A DNA stretch of 63,618 nt, counting the filler, from Asterionella formosa (lineage: Eukaryota): assembly GCA_002256025.1 (NCBI GenBank). It is 17 parts of 17 records of this genome, joined end to end, with 100 filler letters (N's around TTAATTAATTAA, not from the genome) between each part and the next. Parts side by side here need not be neighbours in the genome. Positions count along the whole stretch, not along the records: positions 1 to 3,658 come from NKIB01013988.1; 16 more parts are not named here. One strand, 5' to 3'. Below the pieces are notes generated by a model. The model was not told the origin of the DNA and ran no database searches. It saw only the letters and a list, made by a program, of their open reading frames with translations. Both the position numbers and the translations under genes were made by a program. Numbering within the stretch: the stretch's first letter is position 1; every line of letters starts with the position of its first letter. Below are positions 1 through 48,485 of the stretch, piece by piece.

Positions 1-312
1 ATTTTCGCAATTTCACGTCGACAGCAACCTTTGGGCGATAATACCTAATTAAGAATGTACACAATGCAACAATACAAGTACGAAAGTATTTACTCGCAAT
101 ATAAATCTGAACAACTCGTTCTTGACAATAAATAGCGTATCTTGTAAACTAAGTTCAAACCGTGCGTTTACTCCGTTTAGCGGTGGCTTACAGTTTTTAA
201 GTGGTACCTGTTACCAGGTATTGTGCAAGACGAAAAGAATTACAACCAGCTAAGCTGTGCAGCACGATCATAACGCACCACGAAAAAAAAGGAGTCCTTT
301 CATAAATCAGCT

Positions 313-2755
313 ATGGCGATGAATTTCCCTCCTGCTTCATACGCCCGTACCCACCGTGATGCTCCAATTTTGAATGACCACGGCGTACAAGTTGAGCTCA
401 TAAAGAATGGACTCTGTCCTTATCATCCAGACATTCAGCTTCGCAAAAAGAAGAGATTTGGAGGTTGGAAGACTGTGCGAGACAGCTGCCCTAAATGCAA
501 TCGTCTGAATAGTACCCAAGGTCCTACTGCTCCAGAGACTCCAATGCCTCAGCAGTATCTTTCTTTGACAGAAACCCGAATTCAAACCGCTTCAATTCCG
601 TCTCCGATTGCTGCAATTCTTTCAAAGATGCAAATGAATGAACGGAATGCTGACATTCAAATAAAATGTTGTTCAGAACTTTGTGACTTGGCTGCAAATA
701 ATGACAAAAACAAGGTAACGATTGCTGAAGCAGGAGGTATCATTACGATTCTGTCTGCAATGAAGACTCATTCCTCAAATGCTAATGTGAAACACCATGG
801 TTGTGAAGGACTTATGAACTTGGCTGTTAATGACAAGAACAAGGAGACGATTGATGAAGCAGGAGGTATCATTACGATTCTGTCTGCAATGAAGACTCAT
901 TCCTCAAATGCTACTGTGCAAGAGAATGGTTGTGGAGCACTTAGGAACTTGGCTAGTAATAATGACAACAACCAGGTGACGATTGCTGAAACAGGAGGTA
1001 TCACTACAATTCTGGCCGCAATGAAGACTCATTCCTCAAATGCTAATGTACAAGAGTATGGTTGTGGAGCACTTGATAACTTGGCTGATAGTAATGAAAA
1101 CAACAAGGTGGCAATTGCTGATGCAGCAGGTATCCCTATGATTCTGTCAGCTATGAATAATTATTCAACCAATGCTAATGTACAATATCAAGGTTGTTCA
1201 GCATTATGGAAATTGGCTGACAATAATGAATACAACAAGGTGACGATTGCCGAAGCAGGAGGTATTCCTACAATTCTATCTGCGATGTATAACCATTTCT
1301 CTAATCTTAACGTGCAATACTGTGGTTGTGCAGCACTTATGAAGTTGGCTACTAATAATGAAAGCATCAAGCTGATAATTGCCAATGCTGGTGGAGAAGA
1401 TGCAATTAAATCTGCTATTCGAAATCACTCATCCAATGCTGGTGTCTGGGAAAAAGGTCATGAAGCACTTCATATGATTCAACCAATTTCAACAACATCC
1501 AAGAGAGCGCATGTTACTTCCTTAACCACTCCAACACCAAGCAGTAGTAATTCAACTGATCTCATTTCTGAAGATCTCATTTCCATAGGTCGATCGAAAA
1601 TGAAGGCAGCTGTGGACAATGTGGATTCAAGGCCAATCGAGCTTCCTGTTGAATTCATTACTTATTGTACAAACAATTTTGCTGAAGACAGAAAACTTGG
1701 TCAAGGAGCTTTTGGTGCTGTCTACAAAGGCATGGATGACAATCGGTATTTTGCTGTTAAATGTATTCTATTCAATATTGCTGTTGAGAAAAATAAGGTG
1801 GAGGAAGTTACCAAGGGTTTTAAAAGAGAATTGCAGGTGAGCTCATTTGTGGTATCAAATATTGCATTTCGTTTCAAGTCTTTATGTTTCTCATTCTACT
1901 GTCATACTGTTTCAGGTCTTGAAGAGGTTCCGACACCCCAATATTGTAACTTTGTATGGCTATCATTTGTCCCCTAATTCGCCTAATCAATACCTTGTGT
2001 TTGAGTATGCATCCAATGGTTCTCTTGATACATTCTATAGGAGTGAACAAAAAAGAGCAAGTCTCTCAAGTAAGATCCGACTTCGAATCATGTTCGAAAT
2101 CTTTTGTGCCATCCACTACCTTCATACTGGTACAAAGGACAACCTTGGTCTGTTTCATCGTGATATCAAGTCATCTAATAGCTGCCTTGATCAGAACTAT
2201 ACTGCCAAGCTGATTGATTGTGGTCTAGCCAAATTTGTTCTTGTGGATGACTCCATTGAAACCAGTGCAAATTCTTTTTCAGTTCAGATCACATCAACTG
2301 ATGAAATCTTTGGGTCACGTGGCTACATGTGTCCATGGTATTCTAGGGGAGATAATAAATTTGAAGCATCATGTGATGTTTACTCATTTGGCATTGTCAT
2401 GATTGAGCTTGTGACAGGCTGCATCCAAAATGATAAGAGAAAGTTGGGTAATTTCTCTGAACGCTACTTCCCAAGTGATTTTGAAGGAAACGCTAATGAG
2501 GCATTGGAATTGGCAATTCCAAAACTGGTGAAGGATGTTGATCCTCTAGCATGGGAATGGGACGATGGAATTCTGGCCTCTGTGTGCTCATTAGCCATTC
2601 GTTGCATTCAGATCAATCGCATGAGGAGGCCAACAACTTTTGAATTGGTTGTTAAGTTGGGTCAACTTGTAAGGCCAACAGATCATAATGGGTTATGTGA
2701 ATCACCACAAATGATAATTGCCTTTGACAATCATAACCTGAATGATAGCACCTAA
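313..2755 (+). CDS. Cytoplasmic ARM-repeat + IRAK/Pelle-like protein kinase (exons 313-1836 and 1916-2755, 787 aa; possible further intron 2669-2748 and exon 2749-2820)
   Basis: A phase-0 GTGAG...TTCAG intron (1837-1915, 79 nt) joins RELQ to VLKRFRHPNIV. Kinase motifs GQGAFGAVYKG, FAVK, HRDIKSSN, IDCGLAK, GSRGYMCP and DVYSFG are present, with about 7 ARM-like 43-44-aa repeats upstream. No signal peptide or TM segment is apparent. Confidence 0.9.
607..1479 (+). repeat. Coding tandem ARM-like repeats, about 132-nt unit, about 7 copies including N- and C-caps
   Basis: Recurrent TIAEAGGIxTILSAMKTHSSNANVQxxGCxALxxLA. DNA units are nearly identical (e.g. gaagcaggaggtatcattacgattctgtctgcaatgaagactcattcctcaaatgcta twice). 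Confidence 0.9.
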
Positions 2756-2816
2756 CTATGTGTCTTGTATGCCAAGATTCTACTTTGTGGGAATTGCAAT
2801 GCAAAGCTGATATAAG

Positions 2817-2835
2817 TTAGGGTTAAGGGTTAGGG
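2817..2835 (+). repeat. Short interstitial telomere-like repeat (TTAGGG TTAAGGG TTAGGG)
   Basis: Read directly. Lies at essentially the same position after the kinase cassette as the long array at 29870. Confidence 0.7.
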
Positions 2836-3027
2836 CAAAGGGACGCCTCTAGGCGCCATCCCTATAGAGCATCCAGCCCCACTAGGGCTGGGCATGTATC
2901 TGTAGCACACAGTATGATTAATTCTATAGATAGAAACTGGTATGAGAATGAATGTGTTAGTATCGGTCTTTTTTGTTGGATATGAAGATAATGTAGAAGT
3001 GCACTGTGTTATACTTACCAGAGTGAT

Positions 3028-3299
3028 GGCTATGTGAAAATGTTATACATTATTTTTATTTTGTTATGCATGTCTTGTATAAAATCTCCACCATCGTTGA
3101 ATTCTACATGCAAGCTACAAATTCATTCAGTCATCAAAAACATGCCGGAACTTTGGCATATATAACATACCATAAAGCATAAAAGTAACAACAAATATTG
3201 GCACTTCACCATGTCAATCGCGACGCAAGCGCACATGCGAAATTTTATACAAGACATGCATAACAAAATGAAAATAATGTATAACATTTTCACATAGCC
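3028..3299. mobile_element. MITE-like element with 58-bp TIRs (GGC...GCC), flanked by AT/AT
   Basis: 3026-3085 and 3242-3301 are reverse complements with one mismatch; no coding capacity. The AT flanks would fit an ISL2EU/Harbinger-related TSD (inference). Confidence 0.7.
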
Positions 3300-3658
3300 A
3301 TATAGGAAAAATCATTATAGTATACGGATCATCATTTCAAATCATTACTGATCACCAGTACAAATCTACAAAGAAACAAAATTAAAGAGTTAGCATTGTC
3401 GTACAACGATTAAAAATTGACATCAAAAACAAACACACCATGACAAACACACCATCCATTGTTTCTCAATCAATTCTTCTCCAATTCGAACAGTCTTTAA
3501 TGAATTCAATGAATTGATTGAGAAACAATGTATTTTCTCATTACTTTACGTTTTACACTTTTGCAGGGCAGCATCATTGTCGGAGAATTCTTCTGATGCA
3601 TTACATAAATCTCGAGCTTCTTTGCATCCAATTACTTGCTTGCGGAGTCTCAAACTTC

Positions 3659-3758: not shown

Positions 3759-6584
3759 TTTGGATAGGAGGACTGTCCTCATCAGGTTCTTCAATCACTT
3801 CTGGAGGTTCTGGCTCCTCCAAAATCAACTCAGGGTCATAAATTTCACTCATAGTCAATCTGATATCGTTGGTAGCATTCGTTATGTCTGCCCAAGCATA
3901 AATATCTCTTGTTTCAACCACTTTACTGGTTACTGGATTGTACATACGATACACATCCCTGGCATGGTTCTCACCATAGTAGCCAATCACTACCATGGGA
4001 TTTGCTTTCTCTTTGAACTTCCCTTTCATTGTGGACCTGTTTGTAACATAACCAACTCTTCCAAACTCAATCAAGTGTGTGTAGATGTCACTTGGTTTTC
4101 CATAAAATAACTCATCAGGTGGTACTGCACTTCGGGTGTTTGGAAGGGAATTTCCTAGTATTGCTGCTGTTTTTGTCGCTTCAGCCCATAATTTAGCTTG
4201 CATCTCTTTGGTCCATGCAGCAGATATCATCATTGCCAGTGCACGCTTTGCATCACGTGAAAACATCCTTTCCACCACTCCATTGTGCTGTGGTGTGTGA
4301 GGTGCTGTGTACTCCAACTGAACTCCATATTCTCCTTCACATATTTTTCGTAATTCAAACATATGCTCGCCCGCATTGTCACACCGTAGATATTTTACTG
4401 GCTTCCCAGCAGCCTTCAACTTGTCCAAAATTTCCTTCAGTACTTTTGTTATGCCATTCTTTCTTGCTCCATAAAAATCCCATGACTTCCTTGTTTTGTC
4501 ATCAACAAATTATACCAATAACGTGACCCCATCACTGTCTCTGAATATGGGCCACTTGTATCCATGTAGATTCTCTCGCCAGGTTTTTCTGCTACCTCTG
4601 TAGTCACCTTGTTTGTTCGTTTCTGGGTAGCTTTTGCTCGTGCACAGCCATCACACACCAACATTTTTCCAACTGGTATAATCTTAAGTGCTTGCAGCAT
4701 TTTTCGCACCACTTTTTCTGTTGCATGCCCGAATTTTCTGTGTGCCTCATTAATGTTTATTAGTTCTCTTTTCTGTTTCTTGATCATTCCATCATCATTT
4801 TTAATTTCTTCAATATTGTAGACCTCTTTTGCTCCAGCAACAAGCTGTGCAATCAGATAAGCCATACCATCGGTTCCTGTCTCAAAACTCATGATGCCAC
4901 CAGAATCATTTAATATCTTGGATCCTTCTTTTCCAGCCACAAATTCGTTTCCTTTCTCTGTCAACCTGCCAACACTTATCAAATTTCGAGCAAAACCGGG
5001 AACAACCATCACTTTTTCCAATTTCAGTGTTTTCTTTGTGTCCTTCTGCTCCAGAGTTAAATCACCAATCGCTGTTGCCTTAAGGGTTTCATTGTTTCCA
5101 ACCCTCACATGCTCACCTTCAGTTGCTGTCTGCAAATTACTCATTTTTATAGTGTTGATGGACACATGGGTTGTTGCCCCTGAGTCAACAAGCCAGCTTT
5201 CATGTCCACTCTCTGTGACAGGGCTCATGGTTTTCAATGAATTTGTAGCAAAAACTTCCTCATCCCACATCCATTCTGCTCCATGGCTTGTTTTCTCCAT
5301 CTGGTAAATAATTCCTTTCTCATCAACAATTCCTCTGATCTCATTTTCGTCGACATCGTCATATTCCTCCTCATCACTTGTCTCACACATATCAGCCCAG
5401 CTCATGGTCTTTTTCTCTACTTTCTTCTTTTGGCTTTTCACTTGTTGGAACTTGTTGTATTTTCTTGGTTTCCACTTAAATTCTCTTATGTCTTTCAAGA
5501 CACTTCTCTTCTTCCTGTTATAGTCTGCAATTTCTTGCAAAAGTTCAATTGCGAATTTATTTGTGTCAAAATACTCTGTTTTAGCTTCTTGATTCTTCTT
5601 GACATCATCCTCCCGGATATCAGGTCCATGGATTGTCATACCAACAAACATACCAGACTCTTCCTTCTTTGGACAATCTCTTGCACTGTGTCCAAATCCA
5701 CCGCAGCTGTAGCACTTCACCTTCGGTCTTTCAATGTCTTTCTCTCCACTGTTGTTGCTGTTGCCAGTGCTTCTGCAGTCTCTTGCTCTGTGGCCTTGTC
5801 TTCCACACTTGTTGCATTTACCTTTAAAGGTTCTCCAGGCACCTTTTCCACTTGTAGTATTCAGAGCCAGATGCTTTCCTCTTTCCTTGTTCTCTCTTTG
5901 ATCTTGATTTTCGCGATTTTGACGATTTTTGAATGGCTCCACAAACATCTCATAGTGGCCAATGATCTCAGCAATGAAGTCCTTATTGTCAAATCCTTTT
6001 GTACCAATCTTTCCATTTAGAGATGTAATTACTGATTCATATCTTCGTTTTGGTAGTCTTGCTAATATAGTTGCTTGCATTTGCTCTTCACTGCGTCTTG
6101 ATCCATTTTCGCACTTTTCCACTTCTCTGTTCAATCGTTCCATTTCGACAATCCAAAGGTAGGGATCATCTATGTCTAATTTCATGTAACACTTTTCAAG
6201 CTTGGTTGTTGCTTTTACCAAATCTTTTGTCTTCTTTGAGTCGTACCGGTTCTTGAGAGCTTGAAACATTTGGTATGCTGTTTCATATGATTCAATGATT
6301 GCAAAAGCATCACCTCTGCATGACATAATAAGAAAATGCTTTGCTTCATCATCTTGTCTCACCAACTCCATCTCTTCTTTTGTCAAATCTTCTTTCTCTG
6401 CCCAACTTGGAAGAACTACTTCTTCGAGTAACACCTTCTTGAAACCCTTTGTTGCAGCAAATACCTCAGCCTTCTTGAAAAATTCTCGGGGTTCAACTCC
6501 CCCCTTTGTAGTGTCAGTTCCATAAAAAGGAATGACCTTGACCGACTCCAGGACTGTTCCAGCCTTCTTTGCTTCACTCATCAT
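3759..6584 (-). mobile_element. Ty1/copia LTR retrotransposon gag-protease-integrase region (frameshifted, 3' truncated by contig end)
   Basis: Two CX2CX4HX4C knuckles (CNKCGRQGHRARDC, CYSCGGFGHSARDC), protease WLVDSGAT, HRKFGH..CDGC pre-integrase zinc finger, and integrase core YMDTSGP / LRCDNAGE / PQHNGVVER in copia order. Frameshift near 4500. Confidence 0.93.
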
Positions 6585-9027
6585 TTGCACAATCACTTCT
6601 TGACTTCCTGACCTTAACTTCCACAAGTAATCGTTTTTAAAAACGTGTTGAGATGTTCCAGATCTCCTTGATTGTACTTACACGTCTAGTGTCCAGTACT
6701 ACTAGTTCTCCACTAGCTAGTTTTCGACAACACTTTAATCTACTTTTAGATTAACCTCTTTCAATGTTGTGATTACTTCAGATTACTTTTTCTATCAATC
6801 TTACCAAATTCTATCAATCCTGCCAAATTACTTGGTCTTACCAAATTGATCTTGTTTCACAAATCTTACTTTCTTGGATTTGTTCTTCACCTCAATCCAC
6901 TCTTTCTCATTGGTCGACTTCATACGATTTGCAATTCCAATCGTCTCAGTCTTATCATTTAATCTTGCATGTTGGACTTGCTCTGTAGGAATTGCTATTC
7001 CATTTACGAATCCCGCATATATTTTCCTGAACTGACCTTCTTGTTCCATGGAATTCCTCACCATGACTGTCGGTTGTGCAGACTGTGCAGACTGTGCAGT
7101 CATTGCAGTACTAGATATACTACTGTCTGCTAACAGTAGTCGTTTATCCTCAACAGATACAATTGTACTTGTACCCGTTCATGCTCATTACCGGTACATA
7201 CGAACAACGTGCCGATTGTAAATATCGTTTTACTGTTCGTGACCGTCATCTACCGTTACTCGTTACACGTATCATACATTTCGGCATTCCGGTATATTAC
7301 CGGTACTTTGGTTTTTAAAATCCTCCCCGCTTGCATGATGGCTGGATCATTTTCCAAATACCGGTATAAGTACCGGTAGGCAGAACAAGATACTATTTTT
7401 TAATTCTATATGCNNNNNNNNNNNNNNNNNNNNNNNNNNNNNNNNNNNNNNNNNNNNTTAATTAATTAANNNNNNNNNNNNNNNNNNNNNNNNNNNNNNN
7501 NNNNNNNNNNNNNATATATACAATCGAAACAAGACGACAGTGCGGAACGACAAACAATGGCGGAACAAGGGATCAAAACAAACCACGGAAGCAATCAAAT
7601 CGGAAAGTCGATAAATACGATCTACAATCCACAATCAGTGTTTCACTGTTGTACTCACCGATCCGCTTCAACTAGCATAACAAGCAGCAGACGATGGGAT
7701 CAAAGAAAGACGAACGATGCCTATTGCAAGCCCGAAAAAAGCAAAGGCAGGCAAGATAGAGTGAGAACTATAATTGTGAGGACGAAATCGGGCATACGGT
7801 ACGTAAAATCAATGAATATGATGTGAGCGATATAATTTAACATTCTGGTCTCGTAAAATTTAATACTAAGTCTACAGAGATAATATTATATCGTGTTCAA
7901 AGTAAGCGTTAAAGAATAGCTTAAACCATGCATGGCTGCTTGTTTTTAGTACCATGTACGTAAGTAGACTAGATAAACAAGAGCTTGTCTGGTCGTATCA
8001 GGTCGTATTTTGTATCTAACCCAAACTTCATTTGCATGTTCAAGAATTAATCCTTCCTTGCTGAGCGAGCTTGCCTTTTGTAATTGCCTTCATGGCAATA
8101 ACTCCCTCACCATCTCTTCATAAACTTCATTGCACATGGTTTCGAAATTCCGGAAAATGCACCTATTGGCTCTCTTGGATTCAAATTTCACTGCACTCTT
8201 GCTCGTCACAAGGTGTTTGTTTCTCCTTATGAATACCTACCAATATCCCACTCCGAGTTGACAGTTTTCATGTATTCGATAATGTATGTTGTGCTTCTCT
8301 TTCCATGCTCTTAATTTGTCCGAGGCGGGGTCCCTTCAATAATTGAGTTGGAAAGTTATTGAAGGCCCTTGGCAACAGTGATTGGAATGCGCGTTTTAGA
8401 AAGTTGGATAATCAGTTGCACCAACTAGTAAGGTTCAATTTCGAGCATGGGCGACGGGTTCCCTTGTTTCAAGGAGGTGGCAGCATAATTATTTCTCTTA
8501 GCACGTGTACGGACTATGAAGGAACTGCTATAGGCGGAAAGAAAAACTTGGTTCTTCTGTTTGTAAATTTGAATTATTTTGGTAAGTTCACCTCTTGCAA
8601 CATGGGTATTGTTATGGCAAGGTTTTTAACAACCTTGTATTGCTAGGAGGAGGTCTCGGCGATGGCACGTGCAATGTGTTGTTCATTATCTCGTGACATG
8701 GCTTTGGTGCTGCCTTTGGACGACCATCATGGGTGGCATCATCGTCATTAGTTTGACGAACATTCCCCACATCTTCACTATTTGCTTCTTGTTCTCTATC
8801 TTCATTATTTCTCACCGTTGCACCAATTTCCCGCCTGATTTAGCTTCTGCAAATGGTAATGGACCATAGCTTTTGTTAGCCAAGTCAGTGTAGCCGCCTT
8901 AGACGCAACATTATATGGCACCAGATCGCCTTTCACGTTTCTATTTCCAAGACTATGTTATTTAAAATAAGTGACACTCCAGTCTTATTCAAAGAATTAG
9001 TTATCACCTTGTACTTTTTGGATGGTT

Positions 9028-10969: not shown

Positions 10970-12053
10970 TTCCATATTATTCTGCCATAGACTACCTGTA
11001 GCTATGAAAGAAATACTGTCTATTTTCATTTAGACATTCCACAGACTACATCTAGGCTTCGGACACCAGTCGACATCAACAGCCTAACAGACACATTCTG
11101 ACAATAATGGTACGTGTATTAGAGCTATTCCACGTGTAGAGGGTTAACGCATATCCCGGTACATACATTNNNNNNNNNNNNNNNNNNNNNNNNNNNNNNN
11201 NNNNNNNNNNNNNTTAATTAATTAANNNNNNNNNNNNNNNNNNNNNNNNNNNNNNNNNNNNNNNNNNNNCTCCTTTTCTTGTCGTTGTGGTGATTGAAAA
11301 GTAATTCTTGTTGTGCCCTTCTGCCAAAGTAGTGTTTCTACCACTTGTCGTAGAATTCTACGCAACTGATTGAATTACGGGGAGTGATAGAAGGGCATAC
11401 TTATATATAAACCTGTTCGCATATGTAAAAATAACATTCATTTGCGTGTGTGTCGTATGATGTCGCTCGTGTTTGTAATTCTTGACACTTGTCCATTACA
11501 GTACTAACATAGTCTACCTGAAATAATTTCTCTACCTCCTGACGTCGTTGAGTTCTACATGAAATCATGACCATGATGATGCCGGAACTTTTGTCCATCA
11601 TGAAATATGTTTGTACATATGCCCTTCGTGATAGTAAACCGGTATCAGTACAATAGGTACATTTATTGGAAAAATACCGGTGGTACCACTCCACATGGTT
11701 CGTTATAATCGTCATGTAGAAGAAGGTTGAAGTTTAGCCCAATGTATGTTTGATACCAGTATTTAACATAGATTAATGACCCCGAGGGTCATTTTAGCTT
11801 ACCCGGTATTCAGCTAAGCAAAATTCCGGAAATGATTGAGAATTTTTCCCTTTCCACCTACTGACAAAATGTTGGTACAAAAGCCTCCAAGACAAAGTGA
11901 AAGTGAGAAAACTTGCTTACCGGTACCATGTTTCTGTCTCACGATCAACCAGCTGTCATGCATGCATGCAATATTCTTTTTTAATTGGAAGAGACGAGAG
12001 AAGTGACACAGTAGAGCGTGTGATAGACCTACCACAGCTATGACAGGTACAAT

Positions 12054-14925
12054 TTATTTCACCCCCTGCCTGGGTACCTTGATAGTAATTCTGGTTTCTT
12101 TAACAACTGTAAATGAATGCTGACAAACAAAGTATATCTCCACTTCCAATTTTACCAGGTTGCTTAGACAAGTCGTGAGGTTGCTTGAGGCCCCTGCTTG
12201 TTTACTGAGTTGTTTAATATAAACAATTCTGGGACAGCTCTCCTTTAATTCAGCATCGATAGTACGAAGAGTCTTCATTATTTGTGGTATTTTAGCTTTC
12301 AAATAAGAGAACATGGCCTGGCCTTGTTGATTTAGTTGTGTCACTTCACTTTTTAAATCTTGCACTCCAAGATTTATTTGTTTCACTTCAGTTGGCAAAC
12401 CTTGCAAACCCTGAACTCCATGATTTATTTGTTTCACTTCAGTTGACAGACCTTGCAGTCCACGATTTATTTGTTTCACTTCAGTTGCAATCACTTGCAT
12501 TGAGGTGAAATTTTTTTTATTAATATCACCTCCACCTTTACTAAAATTATCAATTCAACAGTGATTGCCTTTTCCTGGATCTCTCTCAAGCTTACTAATA
12601 ATATCCCCCCACCAATGATAGCGCTCGTTTGGATCCCTCTTCAGCAATCCTTTATGCAGAGTTTTCAAAAAAGTCCAGTCTTTGATTTTTGGCAAAAATG
12701 TTTCGACCTTTTCTTCACAAACTTGGTCACTCCAATCTTTTATTTTCTTAAGCTCATCCAGCAATACTTCTTCACGCGTATCCACTTCAAAAAGTTGACG
12801 ACCAGTGCAGAGATTATATAGAAGGGCTCCAAAGCACCACATGTCATATTAGGGACTGGCTTTAACGACTACAGCACCCCTGCTCCTTCTTTTGCATCTG
12901 GTACTCAACAGCAGCCTGTTCGGGAAGCATGGGACTGGTTTTAACTCCCTTTGCAGCAACCTGCTCTATTCGAATATGGTACTCAACAGTAGCCTGTTCG
13001 GGAGGCATGTATCCAGAGCTTGTTCGCTTCTGACCAGCATTTTCTTTGTCAATTAATGCCGCATTATCAAGATCAATTGCAGCATATCCAACACCCTCGC
13101 TACCAGACACAAAATTTCGAGCCTTCACATCTCCGTGCATAACCTTACACTCTTCATTTAGAAACTGAAGGCACTTAGCAATTTGGATTGCAATGAAACG
13201 CACCATGAAAATGGCTTTGCCTGCAATTTTTTTATGCGATATAGCATCACTGAGGTCATTCTTGTTCCCGCACTCCATGACTAGGAGATGATTGAATTCA
13301 ATGTCTCCTTTTGCCAATTGACTGTCTGGTTAAGTTGAATCTCAATACCCAGATAACCATATTCATCCAACCCTTCCATGCTGTCAGTATATGCAGCCCT
13401 CACACTGATTACAATTTTTTTTGCACCATGAATGCTCATGATTTTGTTCCGCTTTGCCAATTCGCGCAGGAATGCAGGCCTTTCTGTAAAGAGCTTGAAT
13501 GCTACGCCGGTCAATTGCGTGGCCCCAGGTACAACGATCAATTCAGTGCCAAACATAACCATACAGGTACCTGAGAAATGCTTCTCCTCCTCAAATTGAT
13601 ATTTTCCAAGAAACCTTCCGTATTTATCACCCCACTCTTTGAGCTTGGGAAGCTTGGACAACTTTGCCCTATTGGCAACCTTTTGCCATGTCTCTTTTTT
13701 AACTGAAATGACGCTACTTCCGTTGCGCTATGATTATAAATGGAGATTTCCAGCTGATCCTATTCTTCGGACCCTCTCAGCTGTTCCTTTATCTGGAAGA
13801 ATATATTGGCCGCATCAGCTGTTCCAAGATCCACCAAGATTTCCAAAACAGTCCAGTTAGGTATTGGTTCTTGATTCAAATCGAGGCATGGGAGAGTCCT
13901 GCTTCGATCAAATTCATTGGTGGCGAGCACCCAAAAGAAAAAGCCCAGCCGCTCTGGAACAAAGAAAATTCTCCGCCTCTCTGGAACTTTCTCAGCTTGG
14001 GGTGCGTTTAGCATGCACAATTGCTCAAAAGCCGCAAAACCTTATACCAAATTACAATAGGATTTGACAGATCCTTTTGTACCTCATACTGTTTGGAAGA
14101 CCGCTGGCCATCTCCAACATCAAGGGTTGCATATTTCTTTATCGATTGAAGGAGCCTCGAAACACAATATTCAAATGGATTATAGCTCGTTTCATTATCA
14201 AGAGTGTTAGTCGCATCTGGGTGTTTCTTGATCAAAATATGGACAACATCAAAATCAGGATAATCTCCTAGTTGCAACGCGAGGAGAAGAGGTGACTGAG
14301 GTTTGGAGTGCCATAGTTTGCAACTGAATTTGGGTTGTCCTTTATGATTTGCTTGATCTCTGGAGCTTTTTCACCTCGAAAAATTGCCAAATGAAGTGGA
14401 ATAAAGGGCATTTTCATGGACTTAATGGCATAAGGACATTTGTCCACAAAAGCTTGGATGGATACAAGTGATACTGGCTTTTCCCCTCCTAGACCACAGT
14501 CAAGAGGAGCAGGCATCCAAAAGGGCATTTATAATTTCCACTGGAGCCCGGACTTTCATGCCAAGGTGCAGTGGAGTGTTGCCCTTGTTGTCTTTCATCA
14601 TCATGACATCAGGACAGGCATCCAAAAGGACCTTGATAACCACCACACTGGCCCCTCCTTCGATTCCAAGGTGCAACAGAGTGTTTCCATGGCGATCTTG
14701 CACCTTTGCAGCTTCAGGACAAGCTTTCAACAGGGGGTTCAATATCATCCACCCTGACATGGGGTGTTTCCCCCCAGATCAGGGATAATTAAAAACAATA
14801 TCATCAATGTTCTCCGGTTTGAGAAAGTTCTTGCTTCTTATCTCAACTGTTCTTTGGATTTTATTAAGTAAGCGATCATCAATTGAATTATACCGGAGAC
14901 CAAGTTCAGTCAAGACAGTATTGAC
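12054..14925 (-). pseudogene. Ankyrin-repeat + protein kinase + coiled-coil + C-terminal domain gene, disrupted
   Basis: Ankyrin-like HGNTLLHLG / KGNTPLHLG / IPLHLAI, kinase HGDVKARNF, AAIDLD, SSGYMPPE and YDMWCFGALL, and TEVKQIN heptad repeats. Split over at least 7 ORFs by frameshifts, with an in-frame TAA (ASP*YDMW) near 12850. Confidence 0.8.
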
Positions 14926-15954: not shown

Positions 15955-16822
15955 ATGATGAAGGTTGCTATTCTTGCGTCTCTTGCCGCATCGGCTGCTG
16001 CCTTTGCCCCTGCTTCCACTGTCGGTACGTCCAGTGATTCCGTATCCTGATTCACCGTGTCATACAGGACGTTCATGCCGCGGTCATGGAGCATTAATGG
16101 AGTCTCCGGGTTGGATATCAGGGTCGTAGCTATCTTTATTGTGAAGGAAGTTATGGAATAGATTCGCTCAAGTGCAGCTGTGTGCTGTCTCTTCATCCGA
16201 AGTAGTCTCCTGTTTCGGCACCCGTCGTATGCGCCCATCTCACCAACTTGTGATCGCCGACTTCCCTCGCACAGGACGCACGGTTACATCCCTCAATTAC
16301 GAGAAGAGCCCCTCCCTTCCTTTCCTTCCATACCCTGAAAATTTAAAGGGTTATGTCGGAGACGTTGGTTTCGATCCTTTCCGCTTCTCTGACTTTGTCC
16401 CCATGGATTTTCTTCGCGAGGCAGAAATCAAGCACGGTCGTATTTGCATGTTGGCGTGGGCCGGCTTTGTTGCGGTCGACCTTGGACTAAAGATTTACCC
16501 ATTCCCTGAGGCGTATGAGGGCCTCACCTCTGCAACCGCCCACGATGCCCTTGTCAAGCAGGGTGCCATGGGACAAATTCTTCTTTGGGCTAGTCTCGCT
16601 GAAGTCATATCCACGGTCGCTGTCATGCAGATGATGGCCGGATCTGGACGCAAGGCTGGAGACTTTGGACTTGACCCTATGGGATTCTTGGCGAACAAGT
16701 CGGAGGAGGACATCAACGAGATGAAGCTTAAGGAGCTCACCAATGGACGTTTGGCGATGATGGCGTTCTCTGGTGTTGTCACTCAAGCCGTCCTCACCCA
16801 AGGACCTTTCCCTTATGTTTAA
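15955..16822 (+). CDS. LHCR: Light-harvesting fucoxanthin-chlorophyll protein, Lhcr (PSI antenna) type; exons 15955-16024 and 16275-16822, 205 aa
   Basis: MMKVAILASLAASAAAFAP bipartite presequence, GTACGT...ACAG phase-1 intron, and the motifs GFDP, REAEIKHGRICMLA and ELTNGRLAMMA. Confidence 0.93.
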
Positions 16823-25832: not shown

Positions 25833-28269
25833 CCAGGAAGAAATGGCTGAATTATTTTGTCCTGTAGTGATGTGAAGCAAGCTTCACCACTGTGACCTCA
25901 CCCATTCGAACCATATCAGGTGGCTTACCAGTACCAGGTACCCTCGTACCTGGTACCATAGTATAACGGAGTTCCCATCCAATGGTCTATAGACTTCGAA
26001 AGTGTCAGGAATGCGAATCCTGCTGTCCTCGTCTCACAAGCACAAGTCACGGTATACTGTATTTCTGTAGGAGTTGGATCATTAGTAACAGCAGGCCACC
26101 AGGAACAAAACGAAAGCTCACAAAATTTCAAACATCAAACATATAAATTTCCTCTACGAACACAGAACAAAACTACAATCATCATGAANNNNNNNNNNNN
26201 NNNNNNNNNNNNNNNNNNNNNNNNNNNNNNNNTTAATTAATTAANNNNNNNNNNNNNNNNNNNNNNNNNNNNNNNNNNNNNNNNNNNNTTTTTACGTGAA
26301 GAGTGGCATTAATGCATGTGAAGTACCACATAATTAACACTCGTACGTAGACGAAATTTCGAAAAGTCAAATGAATTATTTGAAACATCAACTAATTCAG
26401 TCTCGCGTTCAAAATTCATTGTGAAAACTTCACATGAAACAGTTAAAACTTCACATGAAACCGTTAAAAGTAATCTTTTTTACGTGAAGAGTGGCATTAA
26501 TGCATGTTCGCGGCTTAGATGATGGTGAGCAATGCTCGTTTTGTAAACTCGTTCATTTTGCATATGGAAGGATCCATCAACATGGACATGGACATGGAGA
26601 TGAATTGCACACCGTCACCATCTGGGGGTTGGCGGCATTAAACAAGTCCACATATATAATGTAAGCGCAACAGCAACAAATCAGACATGATTCCTCGCAG
26701 ACAGTGCCGAATTTGACATCATGGTCGATTTCAAGCAATCATGAGGCAGCAAGCAAAATATTCAGAAATTAGGTCAACAATGTTGCTTGTTGGAAAGGGT
26801 TCTGGGACAAGGGTTTCCTCTGCATCATGGTGGAAGAGAAGGTCGTAAATGTGGAGGAGAACTGTCCCATGCAGTCGTGTTGGTCTGGCAGCTGAAATCC
26901 AACAATCAACCGAAATTCCCATTTTCTAGAGGGACAAACACAAAAGCTCGTCAATGAAGAAGTGTAGTAGATAAACTAGCTATGGTAGCTAGTTTCTATA
27001 AATATAGTGTTTCTACAATTCTCCTCCTAGTAGCACAGCATAGCTGTTTCTAGACAAGTAGCAAAAACAACATCATAATAATTAGCTACCAGTATCATTC
27101 TGGATGTTATTTTGCTCTTGGTGTAAAAAACACTACCAGTAGCAATTCACATGGTGATAATTTCCCATGCTGAGTCATCAGGAGGAGGTCGTTCAGGGCA
27201 TATAAAAGCAAGGGACACGGAAATTTGCTAAATTAGTCGACTATGATAAAAAAGTAGAGAAATTAAAATAATCGCTACAGTGCTGTAACCAAAAAGCTAC
27301 ATGACATTGCCGTAGTAGGCAACATAAGGGATCAAAAATCCTATGTATCCATAAAACGAAAAATGGTCCATGTGAATCTATCATTGTTTTCATCCTGCTC
27401 CAACGTAAACGTATTGGAGAGCAGGCAAGGGGTTTTCAGTACATGAATTTGGAAGAACTGAAAAAGGAAGAAGCAAGTCTCACTCTCGCAACTTTGTCTG
27501 TACTGTACAGTAATAGCCTTGTACTAGTCTAGTACCTGGTACAATTTAAAAATGGCTTTGAGCCACTTCGAATGGCTTTGAGTCACTTAACGATGTAATA
27601 TTAAAAATGTATACATAGATTTTTTCCAATTTTCCAGTTATGACTATATTTATTACGGCAAAGTTGTAATTTAGGTCTTGTGTTTTAGATAATCAGATAA
27701 ATGTGTCGGAAAGCAGCGATCGGCCCAAAAGTGGCAAAAAAAATATTATACCATTGAGCCGGCATCTCCGGGAAATACATGTATACATTTCTCATGAAAA
27801 TTTAATATTTAATATATATTTAGTTGTATTTAACCGCCATCGACCATGCACTATAGCATTAAATGAGTAAATTCCTCACTCTCAGTAGATGAATGCAATA
27901 TTTCTTGAAGGCCAAAAAATGGAGTCTTATTTTCATGTCAGAGACCGTAATTCACAGCAGAAATTGCTTCCGACATACCAAAAATTGAGGCAAATCGCAG
28001 TCATCTCATTAACAACGATGAAACCTACATTGGTACCGATTCATGAGGATCGACAAAATTTTCGGCATTTTCCATCTATCATGCAGGAGCAGTGATGAGT
28101 TGCATCGTAGAATTCTACGACAAGTCATATAGACACTACGACGACGACGACAAGTCATATACCTAGACACTACGACGACGACGACGACGAGACACGAACA
28201 AGAACCAAAAAAAGAAGTCGATCGAATAAACAATAGACAACTCTCATTACATTCAAGACGACATTGAAA

Positions 28270-29794
28270 ATGCTAAAAGCTTTTCGTCGAAAGAAGACAG
28301 AAACAGAATTGGAGAAATATGTCAAACGGTTGAAAGCGAATGATCCAAATTTGACTGAACTTAATCTCTCTTTTAATTCAATTGGTGATGACGGAGCCAA
28401 GGCCATTGCAGAGGCTCTCAAGATCAATACTGTCTTGACTACACTTTCTCTCTATAATAATTCAATTGGTGATGACGGAGCCAAGGCCATTGCAGAGGCT
28501 CTCAAGGTCAATACTGTCTTGACTAAACTTGAACTCAAAGATAATTCAATTGATAGTTATTTACTAAATGATATTCAAAAACTGGTTCAAAACAAGAACC
28601 GCAAACCAACAGCAGCCAATACAACTGAACTCATTTCTGAAGGTCGGTCGAAAATGAAGGAAGTTATGGACAATGTGGATTCAAGACCAATCGAGCTTCC
28701 TAAGGAATTCATTATTAGTTGTACAAACAACTTTGCTGAAAAGAGAAAACTTGGTGAAGGTTCTTTTGGTGCTGTCTACAAAGGCATGGATGACAATCAG
28801 TATTTTGCTGTGAAATGTATTCATTTCCATTTAGGTTTTTTGGACGATCAGAAAAAAGGAATTAGTAAGAGTTTTATAAAAGAATTGGAGGTAAGCTCAT
28901 CCGTAGTATCATCTATTACAGGTTGTCTAAGTCTTTTATGTTTCTGATTCTTCCATCATACTGTTTCAGGTATTAAAGAGGTTCCAACACCCTCATATTG
29001 TAACTTTGTATGGCTATCATTTGTCCCCTGTTTCATCTGATCAACACGTGGTATCTGATCAATACCTGGTGTATGAGTTATTATCCGAGGGGTCACTTGA
29101 ATCATTCTATAAGAGTGAACAAAAAAGATCAAGTCTTACAAGTACGATCCGACTTCGAATCATGAACGAAATTATTTCTGCCATCCACTTCCTTCATACC
29201 ATAGAAATGGACGGCCACACTCTGTTTCATCGTGACATCAAGTCAGCTAATATCTGCCTTGATCAGAACTATACTGCCAAGCTGATTGATTGTGGCCTAG
29301 CCAAGTTTGTGCCTAAGGGTAGCTCAGTAAAAACCAATCCAATTCCTTCCTTTATTTGTAACACAGCAGGTGATGGACAATATGGGACACGTGGCTACAT
29401 GTGTCCATATCATGCTAGGGGTAACAAATATATACCAGCATGTGACGTTTACTCATTTGGCATTGTCATGATTGAGCTTGTAACAGGCTGCCTCCAATTT
29501 GGAAGGCTGAAAGAGTTCCATGAACGCTATTTCCCGGAAAATTTTGATGGGACCCCAACTCAAGCATTGGAGGTGGCAATTCCAAAATTGGTAAAAGATG
29601 TTGATTCTGAAGCAGATGAATGGGAAGATGTAATTCTGTCCTCTGTTTGCTCATTAGCCATTCGTTGCATTCAGACCAATCGCGAGAAAAGGCCAACAAC
29701 TAAAGATTTGGTTAAAGAGTTGGGTGAACTTGTAAGGCCAACACCACAAATGATAATTGCATTTGACAATCTTAACCTGAATGAAAGCACTTAA
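28270..29794 (+). CDS. Cytoplasmic LRR (RI/NLRC3-like 28-aa repeats) + IRAK/Pelle-like kinase (exons 28270-28890 and 28970-29794, 481 aa)
   Basis: LxxLxLxxNSIGDDGAKAIAEALKxNTV x2.5. A phase-0 GTAAG...TTCAG intron (28891-28969, 79 nt) sits at the same site as in the ARM kinase. Motifs GEGSFGAVYKG, FAVK, HRDIKSAN, IDCGLAK, GTRGYMCP and DVYSFG are present. Confidence 0.9.
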
Positions 29795-29869
29795 CAATGT
29801 GTCTTGTGTGCCAAGATTCTACTTTGTGGGAATTGCAATGCAGAGCTGATATAGGCAATGCAACAATTG

Positions 29870-29939
29870 TTAGGGTTAGGGTTAGGGTTAGGGTTTAGGT
29901 TTAGGTTTAGGGTTAGGGTTAGGGTTAGGGTTAGGGTTA
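29870..29939 (+). repeat. Telomeric repeat array (TTAGGG)n with TTTAGG variants, running to the contig end
   Basis: About 12 units, G-rich strand oriented toward the contig end as expected for a chromosome terminus. Confidence 0.85.
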
Positions 29940-34451: not shown

Positions 34452-37436
34452 ATGGCAATGTATTCAAGGGTTCCTGTGATTCCTTTGATCAAAGACTACA
34501 ATGTATTGACTATCAAGACTATAACATTCAGAGTTGCTTTAACCGGTGGAAGGTTTGAATCGTTTGATCAAGATATGATTGATGGAAGCTCGGTGGAAGG
34601 AGTGAGTCAATTTCGTGACATGGCTAACACATGTGCCTTTAGCCCTGCAGATACCTTTTCCTACTTTAAAAGGTGTTTGACCAACATTGCCCTATCGGAT
34701 TGGTTGAATGTGGAAGTACACCCAGAAGATCAATCTTACGATAGTTTCGATGAAGCGATGGTTTTATGGTTAGATGATCGTTTACCAAACGAGAGTTTTC
34801 AACATCAACAACAATGGATGCTACGTACATTATTTATCTAAACCCATTTCTATGTTGGTAATGGAGTTTGGAGCTCGTATTAAAACTTTAAACAGGCTAC
34901 TTCAACTAATGCCTCATCCAGAAGATCAAAACAGATTGTCAAAAGAAGATATGCGGATTATCATTATCCGTTCTATGCCCGATGAGTGGCAACAAGAGTT
35001 TGAATTAAATCATGCGAAGACTTCAGACCAATCGATTCGCTCGGTTCTCGCTTACTTCGAGAGTCAACAATCGTTTAAGGACCGAAACAACAAGCATCTT
35101 CCCACGAACAGTTTTCAAACAATCACACAGAACCGTCTTCGCATTGCTGAAGGCAATCGTGTGATGCGTCAAGAAAACGAGCGTGCCAGTCGTCAATTCT
35201 ACAACGATAATTTTACTCCAAGTGGTCGTGGAAGAGCGCGTGCTATTGTCAATGCAGCCGGACGCGCATGGGATCGTCAGGCGACTGATCGTCATCAAGC
35301 TCTACAAGCCAGTCGTACGTACCATGATTATCGTGGTCCTTGCCCGGTACATCCTGAAGGTGTACATACTTGGGGCAATTGTTTCCAGAATCCTCGTACT
35401 CAAGGTGGTCAAGCAGGTCATATGGCTGGTCGTCATAATGGACATGGCCGTTCCAGTTTCGGTAGAAGAGGACATGTTGGTGGTCGTGGAGGCGGCTCAC
35501 ATAGCAATCCTACGGAAAGTTATCATACTGACACTGCTAACCCTGTGTCTGTTCCACATGCTCGTATGTTAAATGCATGGGGTCATAATACTCATCCATC
35601 CGGTTGGGGTACCGTGCCACGTGCCGATCCTACCGAGAATATATCTGCCCAGGAAATTTCAGTGGTCACGAACCCTCCTGCTAGTCAGATAGTGACTTTT
35701 GTCCCTACTACACAACAGCAGATTGCTGATCGCCATCACAGAGGTATGTGCGATAATAGCGATGCTATTTATAATGACTTGTTGAGTATATCTCACGCTG
35801 GTCATCACCTGAATAATATTGTTTACTTACAGGTTGAATACACTATGGATACCACTGTTACTGTAATGCGGGATATATATAACTGTATTGATGGACATGA
35901 TGTTCCACATACATATCAGGGCCCAATTCCGGTTTCCTGTTTTACTTCTAAGGATATATTACTAACATCAATTGATTTGATTCCGATGTCCCTTTTTAGC
36001 GCCAAGATTGGTGGATAATATACCGATACATAAAATACTACGAGTATTATTCGATAGTGGAGGATCGTTATCCTAAATACATGAACGGGTTATGCCTCAA
36101 GGTATTTCTTTGTCTGACGAGACTTCCCAATTAATACATACCATAGCTGGTACTTATTCATCTCATGCCAGTGTCATGTTACATGACCTGATTCTACCAG
36201 AATTTAATCGATCCGCTCATATTTTACAACAAAAGTGTCAAGTCTTTAATGGTCTATGCACATTTGATGTTATTTTAGGACGTGATTTCCTCCGTCAAGT
36301 TGGTTTAACCATTGATTTTGTAAATAACACCATGTCCTGTATGCATATGATTGTTCCTATGCATCCTCTCACATTCTTTGATGATAGAGAACGTTTACGA
36401 GATGTATTATTATATTACGATGCACCTATGATTGTGGAACCTTCATATGCGCTGGAAATTAAAGCTGCTGAATATAATTACGTAAATATTGATACAGTCT
36501 CCCTATGGGGGTGAAACAATCATCTGATATTGCACAAGAAACTATGGAACAGATCCTTAGTGATTTAGATGATGTGGAAATTTATGTTGATGATGTGGGT
36601 TGTTTTTCAATGAATTTTTCGGATCACCTTCATTTATTGGACACTATTTTATATCGTTTACAGACAAATGGTTTTACAATTAATCCATCTAAGTGTGAAT
36701 GGGCTGTCCAAGAGACAGATTGGTTAGGCTATTGGTTAACTCCTAATGGACTGAAACCTTGGTCTAAAGAGTTCCGAGCATTGATTAATATGTCTTCACC
36801 TACCAATCTTAAACAAGTTCGATCATTTCTCAGTGCTGTTACTTACTATCGAGACATGTTTCCTAGACGATCTCATGTTCTTGGACCACTTACGGATTTA
36901 ATTGGAACTAGTCCATTTGTCTGGTTACCTATCCATCAACAAGAAGCTTTTGAAGAAATGAAAGCATTGTTAGTTGCAGATACACTCATGCGTTATCCTG
37001 ACCATAATCTTCCTTTTCATATCTTTAGCTACTGATGCCTCTGATTATCAATTAGGGTCGGTCATTATACAAAATGATCTCCCAGTTGCTTATTATTCTC
37101 GCAAATTATCTGCTGCTCAAAAGAATTATACTACTATTGAAAAAGAATTACTTTCTGTGGTAGAAACTTTCAAAGAATTTCGTTCTATGTTATTGGGTGC
37201 AGTTCTTCATGTTCACACTGATCATCGAAATCTTCTTTATAATACTTTACATACTCAACGTGTTCTACGATGGAGACTTTATATTGAAGAATACCAGCCT
37301 ACTTTTCATTATGTGAAAGGGACTGACAATGCTATTGCAGATTCCATCTCTCGCCTCCCGAGGCTTGAGTCTTTGGTGGAGGATGATATTGATATTGGAC
37401 CGAAATCTCCAACATCAACTTCCACTTCTACTTTTT
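34452..37436 (+). mobile_element. Ty3/gypsy LTR retrotransposon (gag, protease, partial RT, RNase H), degenerate
   Basis: Gag with CPVHPEGVHTWGNC knuckle, protease VLFDSG and DVILGRDFL, RT MGVKQSSD / YVDD / NPSKCEW, and RNase [26 protein letters not shown] in gypsy order. Frameshifts are present and the RT N-terminal half is missing. Confidence 0.92.
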
Positions 37437-45218: not shown

Positions 45219-45448
45219 AAGAATTACGAACACGACCACAAAGAAAAAGGCGTTTCATCGATAAAACAACCAAATGCATCAACGAGAACAAAGCAAACAT
45301 GGCGACAACTATCAGTGGCTCATTCGCCCATACCCACCATGATGCTCCATTTGTGAACGTGTATGCCGTACAAGTGGAGCTCTTTAGGAATGGAATCTGT
45401 CCTTATCACGCAGACATTCAGCTTCGCAATGCGATCATGAACGAATGA
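45219..45448 (+). pseudogene. Truncated remnant of the ARM-kinase family 5' cassette (5'UTR + N-terminal CxxH motif)
   Basis: ATG at 45299 gives MATTISGSFAHTHHDAPFVNVYAVQVELFRNGICPYHADIQLR, vs ..ASYARTHRDAPILNDHGVQVELIKNGLCPYHPDIQLR in gene 313. It stops shortly after. Confidence 0.8.
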
Positions 45449-48246: not shown

Positions 48247-48485
48247 GTTTGAATAGTTCTCGTTGATTGCTTTGGCTGTTTGTGATCGCACGTGTGATGA
48301 AACTGTAGCGCCATTCTCTTTGTGGGCGTGTTTGTAGTTCTTGAGACTCCACCATCTGTCGTTGACATGCAAGCTACAAATTCATTCAGTCATCAAAAAC
48401 ATGCCGGAATAGTTTTGTTTGTGATCGCACGTATGATGAAACTGTAGCGCGGTTTTCTTTGTGAGCGTGTTCGTCATTCTTGAGA
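48010..48485 (-). repeat. 168-bp tandem duplication (plus partial third copy) of the 5'UTR/start cassette
   Basis: LKNYKHAHKE..SQTAKAINENYSNM..SAVSYAPTHDAS occurs twice. Third partial copy at 48415-48485. Confidence 0.85.

Follow-up and report, generated by a model that had tools for sequence, protein, structure and literature searches.

We analysed a stretch of 63,618 bases (the window) from the genome assembly GCA_002256025.1 of the diatom Asterionella formosa; the window is made up of 17 small unplaced scaffolds of 3637-3658 bp, ordered by size and joined through 16 linkers of the form N44-TTAATTAATTAA-N44. Two of its genes, gene 1 in the first piece (1-3658) and gene 2 in the eighth (26289-29939), are probably paralogues from a large, lineage-specific and fast-evolving family of cytosolic Ser/Thr kinases of the IRAK/receptor-like kinase (RLK) type, built of interchangeable modules. 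Since the two genes lie on separate scaffolds joined end to end, the 25-kb spacing between them carries no information and does not imply neighbourhood. In the architecture we propose, the N-terminal module would be either a repeat scaffold, whether Armadillo (ARM), ribonuclease inhibitor (RI)-type leucine-rich repeat (LRR), ankyrin or Kelch, or else a second kinase or a domain of unknown type; a conserved linker (..TD.IS.GRSKMK..DNV.SRPIELP.EF) would join it to a kinase marked by DCG for DFG, CP[WYF] for APE and a single phase-0 intron at a conserved position. Members of the wider family would usually continue past the kinase with a RING-like zinc finger and a C-terminal domain not yet characterised. 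The window genes would belong to a sub-family cut by a nonsense codon in the linker between kinase and zinc finger, gene 2 lying at the end of a chromosome and gene 1 next to a vestigial telomere repeat.

A sequence-only reading of the window had proposed that one kinase cassette is fused to two different repeat sensors, with homology between the genes starting at about 1550. We observed the onset at ~1560-1575 in gene 1. Identity in windows of 60 nt was 25/60 at 1501-1560 and 44-56/60 past 1561. BLASTN aligned 1573-2814 with 28627-29853 at 78.4% identity, and BLASTP of residues 409-787 of gene 1 against residues 113-481 of gene 2 gave 244/385 identities (63%, E 5e-170). The parts upstream, described earlier as unrelated, showed no BLASTN homology before the cassette and were assigned by Pfam to ARM in gene 1 and LRR_6 in gene 2. 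The shared 79-nt phase-0 intron and 3' tail were also borne out, with identities of 63/80 between the introns and 55/60 over the 60 nt that follow the stop. All five length differences between the two cassettes preserve the frame, and no long identical stretch exists between the DNA of gene 1 and gene 2. The linker of gene 1 carries a 15-nt tandem duplication (1558-1572 and 1573-1587, DLISE/DLISI), which gene 2 and the public protein P0001 lack. The shared intron was rejected as a sign of recent common origin, because the ~40% identical loci L006 and L007 retain it at the same kinase position as the window genes; this position is common to the kinase family. Exon shuffling was ruled out as the mechanism, since the module junction lies inside exon 1 and not at an intron.

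Gene 1 matched ARM_LRRK2 (1e-18), Arm (8e-16) and Pkinase in Pfam, and gene 2 matched LRR_6 (6.8e-16, in two stretches) and Pkinase. The repeats of gene 2 are 28-residue units matching Pfam LRR_6, that is, leucine-rich repeats of the RI type. Those of gene 1 are of the Armadillo type, which is defined by tandem three-helix repeats of ~42 aa forming a superhelix, as judged by Pfam, AlphaFold2 (AF2) and Foldseek. The AF2 model of the ARM region has three helices per unit at pLDDT 77-94, and its best Foldseek matches were designed peptide-binding ARM proteins, APC and beta-catenin (E 1e-8 to 1e-6). Entropy was calculated over 20 units (5 from gene 1, 8 from a related gene on scaffold 13 and 7 from locus L004), the two cap repeats having been dropped. 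Positions 20, 23, 26, 29, 30, 36, 37, 40 and 44 of the unit showed high entropy, and scaffold residues were nearly fixed. By a crude pairwise count without a tree, mean pN/pS was 0.46/0.38 at the variable positions as compared to 0.12/0.18 elsewhere. According to AF2, helix 3 spans positions 25-39 of the unit. In known ARM proteins this helix lines the ligand groove, and it is a reasonable inference from the model that the variable helix-3 positions form a variable binding surface. The N-terminal Cys/His module of gene 1 (..CPYHPDIQLRKKKRFGGWKTVRDSCPKC..) matched no Pfam family; its conservation extends to P0001 and, in part, to scaffold 13, and it could represent a zinc-binding domain of small size.

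The earlier claim that both proteins lack a signal peptide and a transmembrane (TM) segment held good as far as Kyte-Doolittle hydropathy goes, neither gene having a hydrophobic N-terminus. The top 19-residue windows scored 1.48 and 1.58 in the two genes and lie within the kinase core helix. Judged by hydropathy, the layout of a receptor-like kinase (signal peptide, ectodomain and TM helix) is absent from both genes. Each encodes a single kinase domain and is not itself a tandem kinase. Pfam detected no death-fold family in gene 1 or gene 2, and no Roc, Ras, COR, NB-ARC, NACHT or TIR family in either gene or in the scanned relatives.

The kinase, previously called IRAK/Pelle-like, was indeed nearest to IRAK, RLK and receptor-like cytoplasmic kinase (RLCK) domains by sequence and fold ranking, not by a tree. 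As query for the PDB sequence search we used P0006, a relative with an uninterrupted kinase (no intron read-through), which matched a lectin RLK (8.7e-29), IRAK1 (4.7e-26) and then LysM RLK, CERK1 and IRAK4. Among the 60 PDB matches listed for P0006, CTR1 (1.2e-20) was the only other named family of the tyrosine kinase-like (TKL) group. Many of these alignments start ~20 residues before the G-loop, thereby covering the N-terminal extension (..EFITYCTNNF..LGQGAFGAVYKG). Exon 2 of gene 1 matched LysM RLK (3.7e-19), PBL2, lectin RLK and IRAK1, with CTR1 at 3.6e-17; CTR1 thus trailed the best match by 8 orders with P0006 and by merely 2 orders with exon 2 of gene 1. For the fold ranking, an AF2 model of P0012 (64% identical to gene 1 exon 2) was compared with 48,161 representative chains. 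Plant RIPK, IRAK1, IRAK4, BIK1, IRAK3 and RLKs occupied ranks 1-10 (Z 19.4-16.4), followed by RIP3 (15.7), LIMK2 (15.6), Roco4 (13.6), CRAF (13.6), TAK1 (13.3) and CTR1 (13.3), and Foldseek with the same model agreed with this IRAK/RLK-type ranking. Both genes keep the G-loop, Lys, alpha-C Glu, HRD..N and the metal-binding Asp (DxG), and have DCG instead of DFG and CPW/CPY instead of APE. Fifty columns were invariant among 8 relatives, clustered at the catalytic loop, DCGLAKF and CDVYSFG.VMIELV.GC. Together with the Ka/Ks of the cassettes and the open frames described below, this suggests that a core is conserved while the rest of the protein changes freely. In the tandem-kinase proteins P0002, P0009 and P0010 the first kinase has HCD in place of HRD (non-RD), and P0008 has HGD.

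A low-copy family with fixed architectures and 1:1 orthologues was not what we found. The kinase cassette is joined to different N-terminal modules in a multi-copy repertoire of mixed architectures, without 1:1 orthologues. When exon 2 of gene 1 was used as query, 42 of the 73 proteins at E<=1e-30 were 60-84% identical to it and the remaining 31 were 36-53% identical; at least 42 distinct public sequences thus fall at 60-84%, none is identical to gene 1, and no named organism exceeded 50% identity among the proteins at E<=1e-30. A search with the linker and N-lobe yielded 10 proteins, in which the order of parts was determined by custom module profiles. P0001 carries the gene-1-type N-terminal motif, 7 ARM units and the linker-kinase, colinear with gene 1, and P0007 carries six LRRs (its first 31 residues as in gene 2) before the linker-kinase, in the part order of gene 2. 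In P0004 and P0005 an LRR tail precedes ARM, in P0003 ARM precedes an LRR tail, and P0006 has an unknown domain of 415 aa before the linker-kinase. Kinase-linker-kinase in one frame was found in P0002, P0009 and P0010. Close relatives with kinase-zinc finger-C-terminal domain are P0012 and P0176.

The breakpoints between modules sit in the conserved linker, in agreement with the earlier reading, as seen in protein for P0004/P0005 and in DNA for L002/L003. Within the initial 240 aa, 5 substitutions and a single indel separate P0004 from P0005, followed by 14 differences in the next 49 residues; the divergence begins right past ..KMKEAMDNV, where one takes a gene-2-type and the other a gene-1-type N-lobe. 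In locus L002 the DNA of the LRR part resembles gene 2 (80-91% identity), while that of the kinase N-lobe and the intron is closer to gene 1 (90-94%) than to gene 2 (62-81%). Over 1775-2200, L003 shares 94-99% identity with gene 1, but its linker is 94% identical to gene 2. The DNA of L004 switches its similarity between the two genes likewise, and P0137 and P0139 carry reciprocal combinations of two activation-segment types. Domain reassortment across the family is supported by these comparisons. New combinations would arise by in-frame ectopic recombination in the conserved linker, together with gene conversion within the kinase. Locus L004 (1-2475) holds, on the same strand, a kinase 3' end with the tail and stop of the window genes, then a second zinc-finger remnant (756-875) and an ARM array (1371-2474), and this layout suggests that family members lie in tandem.

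In several longer relatives (P0012, P0147, P0151, P0161 and P0176), the kinase is followed by a RING-like segment rich in Cys and His, then by a long helix and finally by a conserved domain; in P0012 these parts occupy residues ~215-514. The conserved C-terminal domain opens with CP[RK]IVYI..FFVCQHSF, and is alpha/beta with the pattern CP.LV...P .. F.C.HS .. WVK. It matched no Pfam family at E<=1 and gave no usable ESM Atlas match, and both fold searches with the P0012 model were taken up by kinase matches. A profile scan of 147 more distant proteins detected 53 with the C-terminal domain and 24 with the zinc finger, among them ankyrin-kinase proteins of Fragilaria. Of 55 proteins with the C-terminal domain, 54 had a kinase, 12 ankyrin repeats, one LRR_6 and one Kelch. 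With P0176 as query, just 177 representatives were found at E<=1e-3 among 1.84 billion proteins; the 56 that were scanned included 43 with a kinase, 7 with ankyrin repeats, 2 with LRR_6 and 1 with a C2 domain (P0241).

The stop of the window genes falls in the linker between kinase and zinc finger of these longer relatives. Read in frame past the stop, gene 1 continues as ..NLNDST, stop, LCVLYAKILLCGNCNAKLI, stop, and gene 2 as ..NLNEST, stop, QCVLCAKILLCGNCNAELI, stop, and the long relatives have ..SVNESAELCVLCAKLSTPISICKDHFTCQQCF.. at the same place. The zinc-finger profile matched across the stop with E of 4e-6 in gene 2 (LNLNESTxQCVLCAKI) and 0.0018 in gene 1, both matches being short but at the homologous site and in the right frame. 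We thus read the 3' tail common to both genes as relic coding sequence, and the stop as a nonsense codon of the sub-family. Judged from sequence, both genes are truncated by this common nonsense codon, with loss of the zinc finger and the C-terminal domain. The same truncated tail terminates at least 5 further public proteins (P0136, P0138, P0146, P0149 and P0150) as well as L004.

The TTAGGG repeats reported beside both genes are present at both, yet not as equals, gene 2 adjoining a terminal array and gene 1 an internal vestige. The pattern TTAGGG..TTAGGG matched 8 times in the window against 0.01 expected by chance, and paired units occur in two places only, each directly past the tail of a gene. 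The gap between the stop of gene 2 and its terminal (TTAGGG)n array is 75 nt. Past the 3-unit vestige of gene 1, ~820 nt of other sequence follow. Downstream of this vestige lies a 63-nt inverted repeat, 97% identical (3026-3088 and 3239-3301), and a related 65-nt stretch is present on scaffold 13 (48347-48409). Contig depth in the DNA run was very high at 1-244 and 3539-3658, which indicates that the ends of the scaffold of gene 1 are repeats.

Twenty public runs, 8 of which are RNA by their records, contained part of gene 1; they are labelled as metagenomes of lakes, freshwater or algae. Short contigs of four runs (one DNA and three RNA, from two studies) were compared with gene 1 at >=95% identity. 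In each of the three RNA runs a contig joined 1837 to 1919 with CA between (sides of 25-36 letters), and none did so in the DNA run. This joint is the predicted intron removed from a transcript. The RNA pieces cover most of 367-2928.

Several observations weigh against the proposed family of interchangeable modules or narrow what can be claimed for it. Two adjacent TTAGGG units were found in 0/11 of the related loci (L001-L011), and gene 2 alone touches a telomere array among the sequences examined. Exon 2 of the spliced contigs starts with GCA and not GTC, so that they come from an allele or a close paralogue of gene 1. In RNA, where the sequence-only reading had asked for the fusions to be confirmed, pieces at 1418/1440-1547 and 1544-1675 tile the ARM-kinase junction of gene 1, but none listed bridges it with 31 letters on both sides, so that the fusion is not seen within one transcript. 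The family was counted in public proteins and contigs, and the close relatives are environmental contigs of 0.9-3.6 kb, possibly from a mix of strains or species. Assemblers can join paralogues at conserved stretches, and any single contig may be chimeric. L002 was set aside as clean evidence for an LRR array on a gene-1-type kinase, as it has no single open frame, and the ARM array of L004 carries a stop. The class of the kinase is derived from rankings and not from a tree, any binding of a ligand and any catalytic activity are predictions, and the Ka/Ks of the cassettes fits relaxed constraint as well as diversifying selection.

Among the alternatives, the least improbable, unlikely as we consider it, is that the family is an intracellular immune-receptor repertoire, in which variable repeat sensors would recognise molecules of pathogens and a constant IRAK-like kinase would pass on the signal. 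This reading is an analogy with the tandem-kinase and kinase-fusion resistance proteins of plants and with the ROCOs of brown algae. The IRAK/RLK type of the kinase, the multi-copy family with its mosaic architectures and tandem kinases, the focus of ARM variability on helix 3, the apparent position of gene 2 at a chromosome end and the lack of any orthologue above 53% identity among named diatoms would all fit such a role, and plant tandem kinases are described as intracellular resistance proteins (PMC11153570, PMC13478195). Nevertheless, the Pfam scans of the genes and relatives detected none of the NB-ARC, NACHT, TIR or death domains, the excess of pN over pS at variable ARM sites is small (0.46 vs 0.38, without a tree), and fast evolution near telomeres is known in non-immune families too. 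We regard as more doubtful that both genes have lost their function and are decaying, as truncated subtelomeric duplicates under neutral drift, with different N-termini that are by-products of ectopic recombination. Ka/Ks between the cassettes was 0.69-0.98 at Ks 0.09-0.39, far above usual kinase values, and the intron and 3' relic match at least as closely as the coding sequence does. The common nonsense codon that deletes two domains, the small unplaced scaffolds with high-copy repeat ends and the related loci with a stop or frame breaks (L004, L002) would also be expected under decay. However, both long frames (787 and 481 codons) are open at ~22% nucleotide divergence, when in a simulation of 379 codons just 0.96% of copies were still stop-free after 10% random change; all cassette length differences keep the frame, the catalytic residues and the invariant columns are kept, the identical tail ends at least 5 further distinct public proteins, and spliced RNA contigs are present.

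Less probable again is a role of the family in within-species recognition or signalling, such as perception of mating type or sexual cues, in place of defence. Rapid evolution and lineage restriction would fit this role, and in Pseudo-nitzschia multistriata LRR receptor-like kinases are reported to shift expression in sexual reproduction, two of them with Ka:Ks >1 (PMC5485032); the names of these genes are, in the gene table of that paper, based on homology only. The window proteins, having no signal peptide or membrane segment by hydropathy, would not sense external cues directly, which argues against such a role. Very unlikely, finally, are assembly artefacts, in which contigs would have been wrongly joined at a linker common to many paralogues. 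The scaffolds are small and unplaced, unitigs of every run break near 1547 and the linker is highly conserved, as this explanation would have it. Yet independent contigs repeat the ARM-linker-kinase order (P0001) and the LRR-linker-kinase order (P0007, L002), gene 1 and gene 2 are 78% identical in DNA and offer no long identical stretch for a mis-join, and some of the mosaic forms represent 8-22 member sequences. For the family of interchangeable modules that we prefer, the repeat domain would bind a protein or peptide through its variable helix-3 positions and thereby control or localise a catalytically competent kinase, and the biological input may come from a pathogen, from a mating cue or from another source.

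The nearest named relatives are 'serine/threonine kinase' proteins of Fragilaria crotonensis (ankyrin-kinase-zinc finger-C-terminal domain) at 36-50% identity, in which the same DCG kinase, RING-like zinc finger and C-terminal domain were detected. Among the 120 matches listed, 26 were from Fragilaria, 19 of these 26 with ankyrin and none with ARM. The window genes differ from them in having ARM or LRR_6 instead of ankyrin and in the loss of the zinc finger and C-terminal domain. Similar proteins are present in Amphora, Epithemia (Kelch), Pelagomonas and Aphanomyces. The plant tandem-kinase and kinase-fusion resistance proteins (for example WTK1/Yr15, Sr62, RWT4 and Pm4), as described in the sources cited above for plants, are alike in that a cytosolic RLK/Pelle-type kinase is joined to a second kinase or to varied domains, as in the close relatives P0002, P0009 and P0010. 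The partners differ, being ARM, LRR_6 and ankyrin arrays here, as does the DCG/CP[WY] signature, and the plant proteins have a demonstrated immune function whereas for the diatom family such a function is hypothetical. The kinase domains of animal IRAK/Pelle were among the best sequence and fold matches, with the N-terminal extension covered. As compared to IRAK/Pelle, however, the window genes have no death domain, have DCG for DFG and have lost the Glu of APE, and their N-terminal repeat arrays have no counterpart there.

LRRK/ROCO proteins, including candidate immune receptors of brown algae (PMC11378527), likewise combine ARM, ankyrin and LRR arrays with a TKL-group kinase, and the best Pfam ARM match of gene 1 was ARM_LRRK2. 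The brown-algal ROCO repertoire is described as diversified through reshuffling of repeat modules by exon shuffling (PMC11378527); the diatom junctions, in contrast, are not at introns. The window genes also lack the Roc-COR GTPase, and the fold Z was ~19 for IRAK as against 13.6 for Roco4. Oomycetes, too, have stramenopile TKL kinases, some of them with ankyrin or armadillo domains, and five IRAK-class kinases are described in Phytophthora infestans, four with a transmembrane segment and all five predicted to be inactive (PMC3019232). The window proteins are, by contrast, soluble by hydropathy and keep the catalytic residues. The text of the same 2010 kinome study reports that no IRAK-like kinase was detected in the diatom Thalassiosira pseudonana (PMC3019232). 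We found no description of an IRAK-like multi-domain family in diatoms in the full-text literature, supplements aside.

Table 1. Positions of gene 1, gene 2, adjoining repeats and related sequences in the window
Feature	Position	Strand	Remarks
Gene 1, coding region	313-2756	+	787 aa; Cys/His motif, 7 ARM repeats, linker, IRAK/RLK-like kinase, short tail
Gene 1, exons	313-1836; 1916-2753	+	ATG 313; stop (TAA) 2754-2756
Gene 1, N-terminal module	328-510	+	C-x2-H ... C-x2-C motif; AF2 pLDDT 57-72
Gene 1, Armadillo array	607-1473	+	7 units of ~44 aa, last = cap; Pfam, module hidden Markov model (HMM)
Gene 1, conserved linker	1537-1680	+	Start of shared cassette
Gene 1, kinase N-lobe, exon 1 part	1681-1836	+	G-loop GQGAFG, Lys of FAVK
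Gene 1, intron	1837-1915	+	79 nt, GT..AG, phase 0
Gene 1, kinase, exon 2 part	1916-2677	+	HRDIKSSN, DCG for DFG, GYMCPW for APE, DVYSFG
Gene 1, C-terminal tail and TAA stop	2702-2756	+	PQMIIAFDNHNLNDST
Gene 1, '3' tail'	2757-2816	+	Putative relic of first Cys pair of RING-like zinc finger
Interstitial telomere-like repeat	2817-2835	+	TTAGGGTTAAGGGTTAGGG; 19 nt, three units; beside gene 1
Gene 2, coding region	28270-29794	+	481 aa; RI-type LRRs, linker, kinase, tail
Gene 2, exons	28270-28890; 28970-29791	+	ATG 28270; stop 29792-29794
Gene 2, LRR_6 (ribonuclease-inhibitor type)	28351-28551	+	Two full units and partial third; Pfam, module HMM
Gene 2, linker	28618-28722	+	Module HMM
Gene 2, intron	28891-28969	+	79 nt, phase 0
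Gene 2, in-frame zinc-finger relic past stop	29795-29854	+	Putative
Telomere array	29870-29939	+	(TTAGGG)n with TTTAGG variants; reaches scaffold end, beside gene 2
Related gene, scaffold 13	45574-48372	-	932-codon open frame; gene-1-like N-terminus, ~340-aa unknown middle, 11 ARM units
Fragmentary relative, another scaffold	11270-14925	-	LRR tail at scaffold end, ankyrin repeats, divergent kinase, repeated coiled-coil segment

Two further scaffolds of the window carry relatives of these genes (Table 1). The gene on scaffold 13 ends past its cap repeat, without a kinase, and a fragment of the N-terminal Cys/His module lies just past its end on the + strand (45320-45430). The relative at 11270-14925 includes a kinase open reading frame (12862-13317, Pkinase 1.6e-9) and the start of the C-terminal domain of the family (12060-12236); as it is spread over several frames, introns or breaks are likely. 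By its domains, it is judged to be a further, more distant family member. Elsewhere in the window, pieces of a Copia-type long terminal repeat retrotransposon (gag, zinc knuckle, Pol beta-barrel and integrase) occupy 3759-6626 on the - strand, a reverse-transcriptase fragment lies on another scaffold (36505-37035, + strand), and a light-harvesting protein gene (Chloroa_b-bind, 2.6e-36), in keeping with a photosynthetic alga, is present at 16172-16822 on the + strand.

Little is known of how diatoms sense intracellular threats or partners, and the family offers candidate sensors for studies of infection or mating. It also provides a natural set of reassorted domain combinations with mapped breakpoints and, in its C-terminal domain, a conserved but uncharacterised part that hardly ever occurs without a kinase of the family type. 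We consider it doubtful that the family constitutes a diatom-specific recognition system, hypervariable, telomere-associated and recombining, in which a single chain would run from a repeat sensor through an IRAK-like kinase and a RING-like finger to a C-terminal output domain of a new kind, with the truncated and tandem-kinase forms acting as decoys or adaptors, for defence or for self/non-self recognition. If so, one polypeptide would unite what animals split between IRAK and RING E3 ligases, and it would serve in defence against the parasites and viruses that control blooms, or in self/non-self recognition. Should an immune role fail, the family would still show clearly how a gene family evolves at the ends of chromosomes in an alga.

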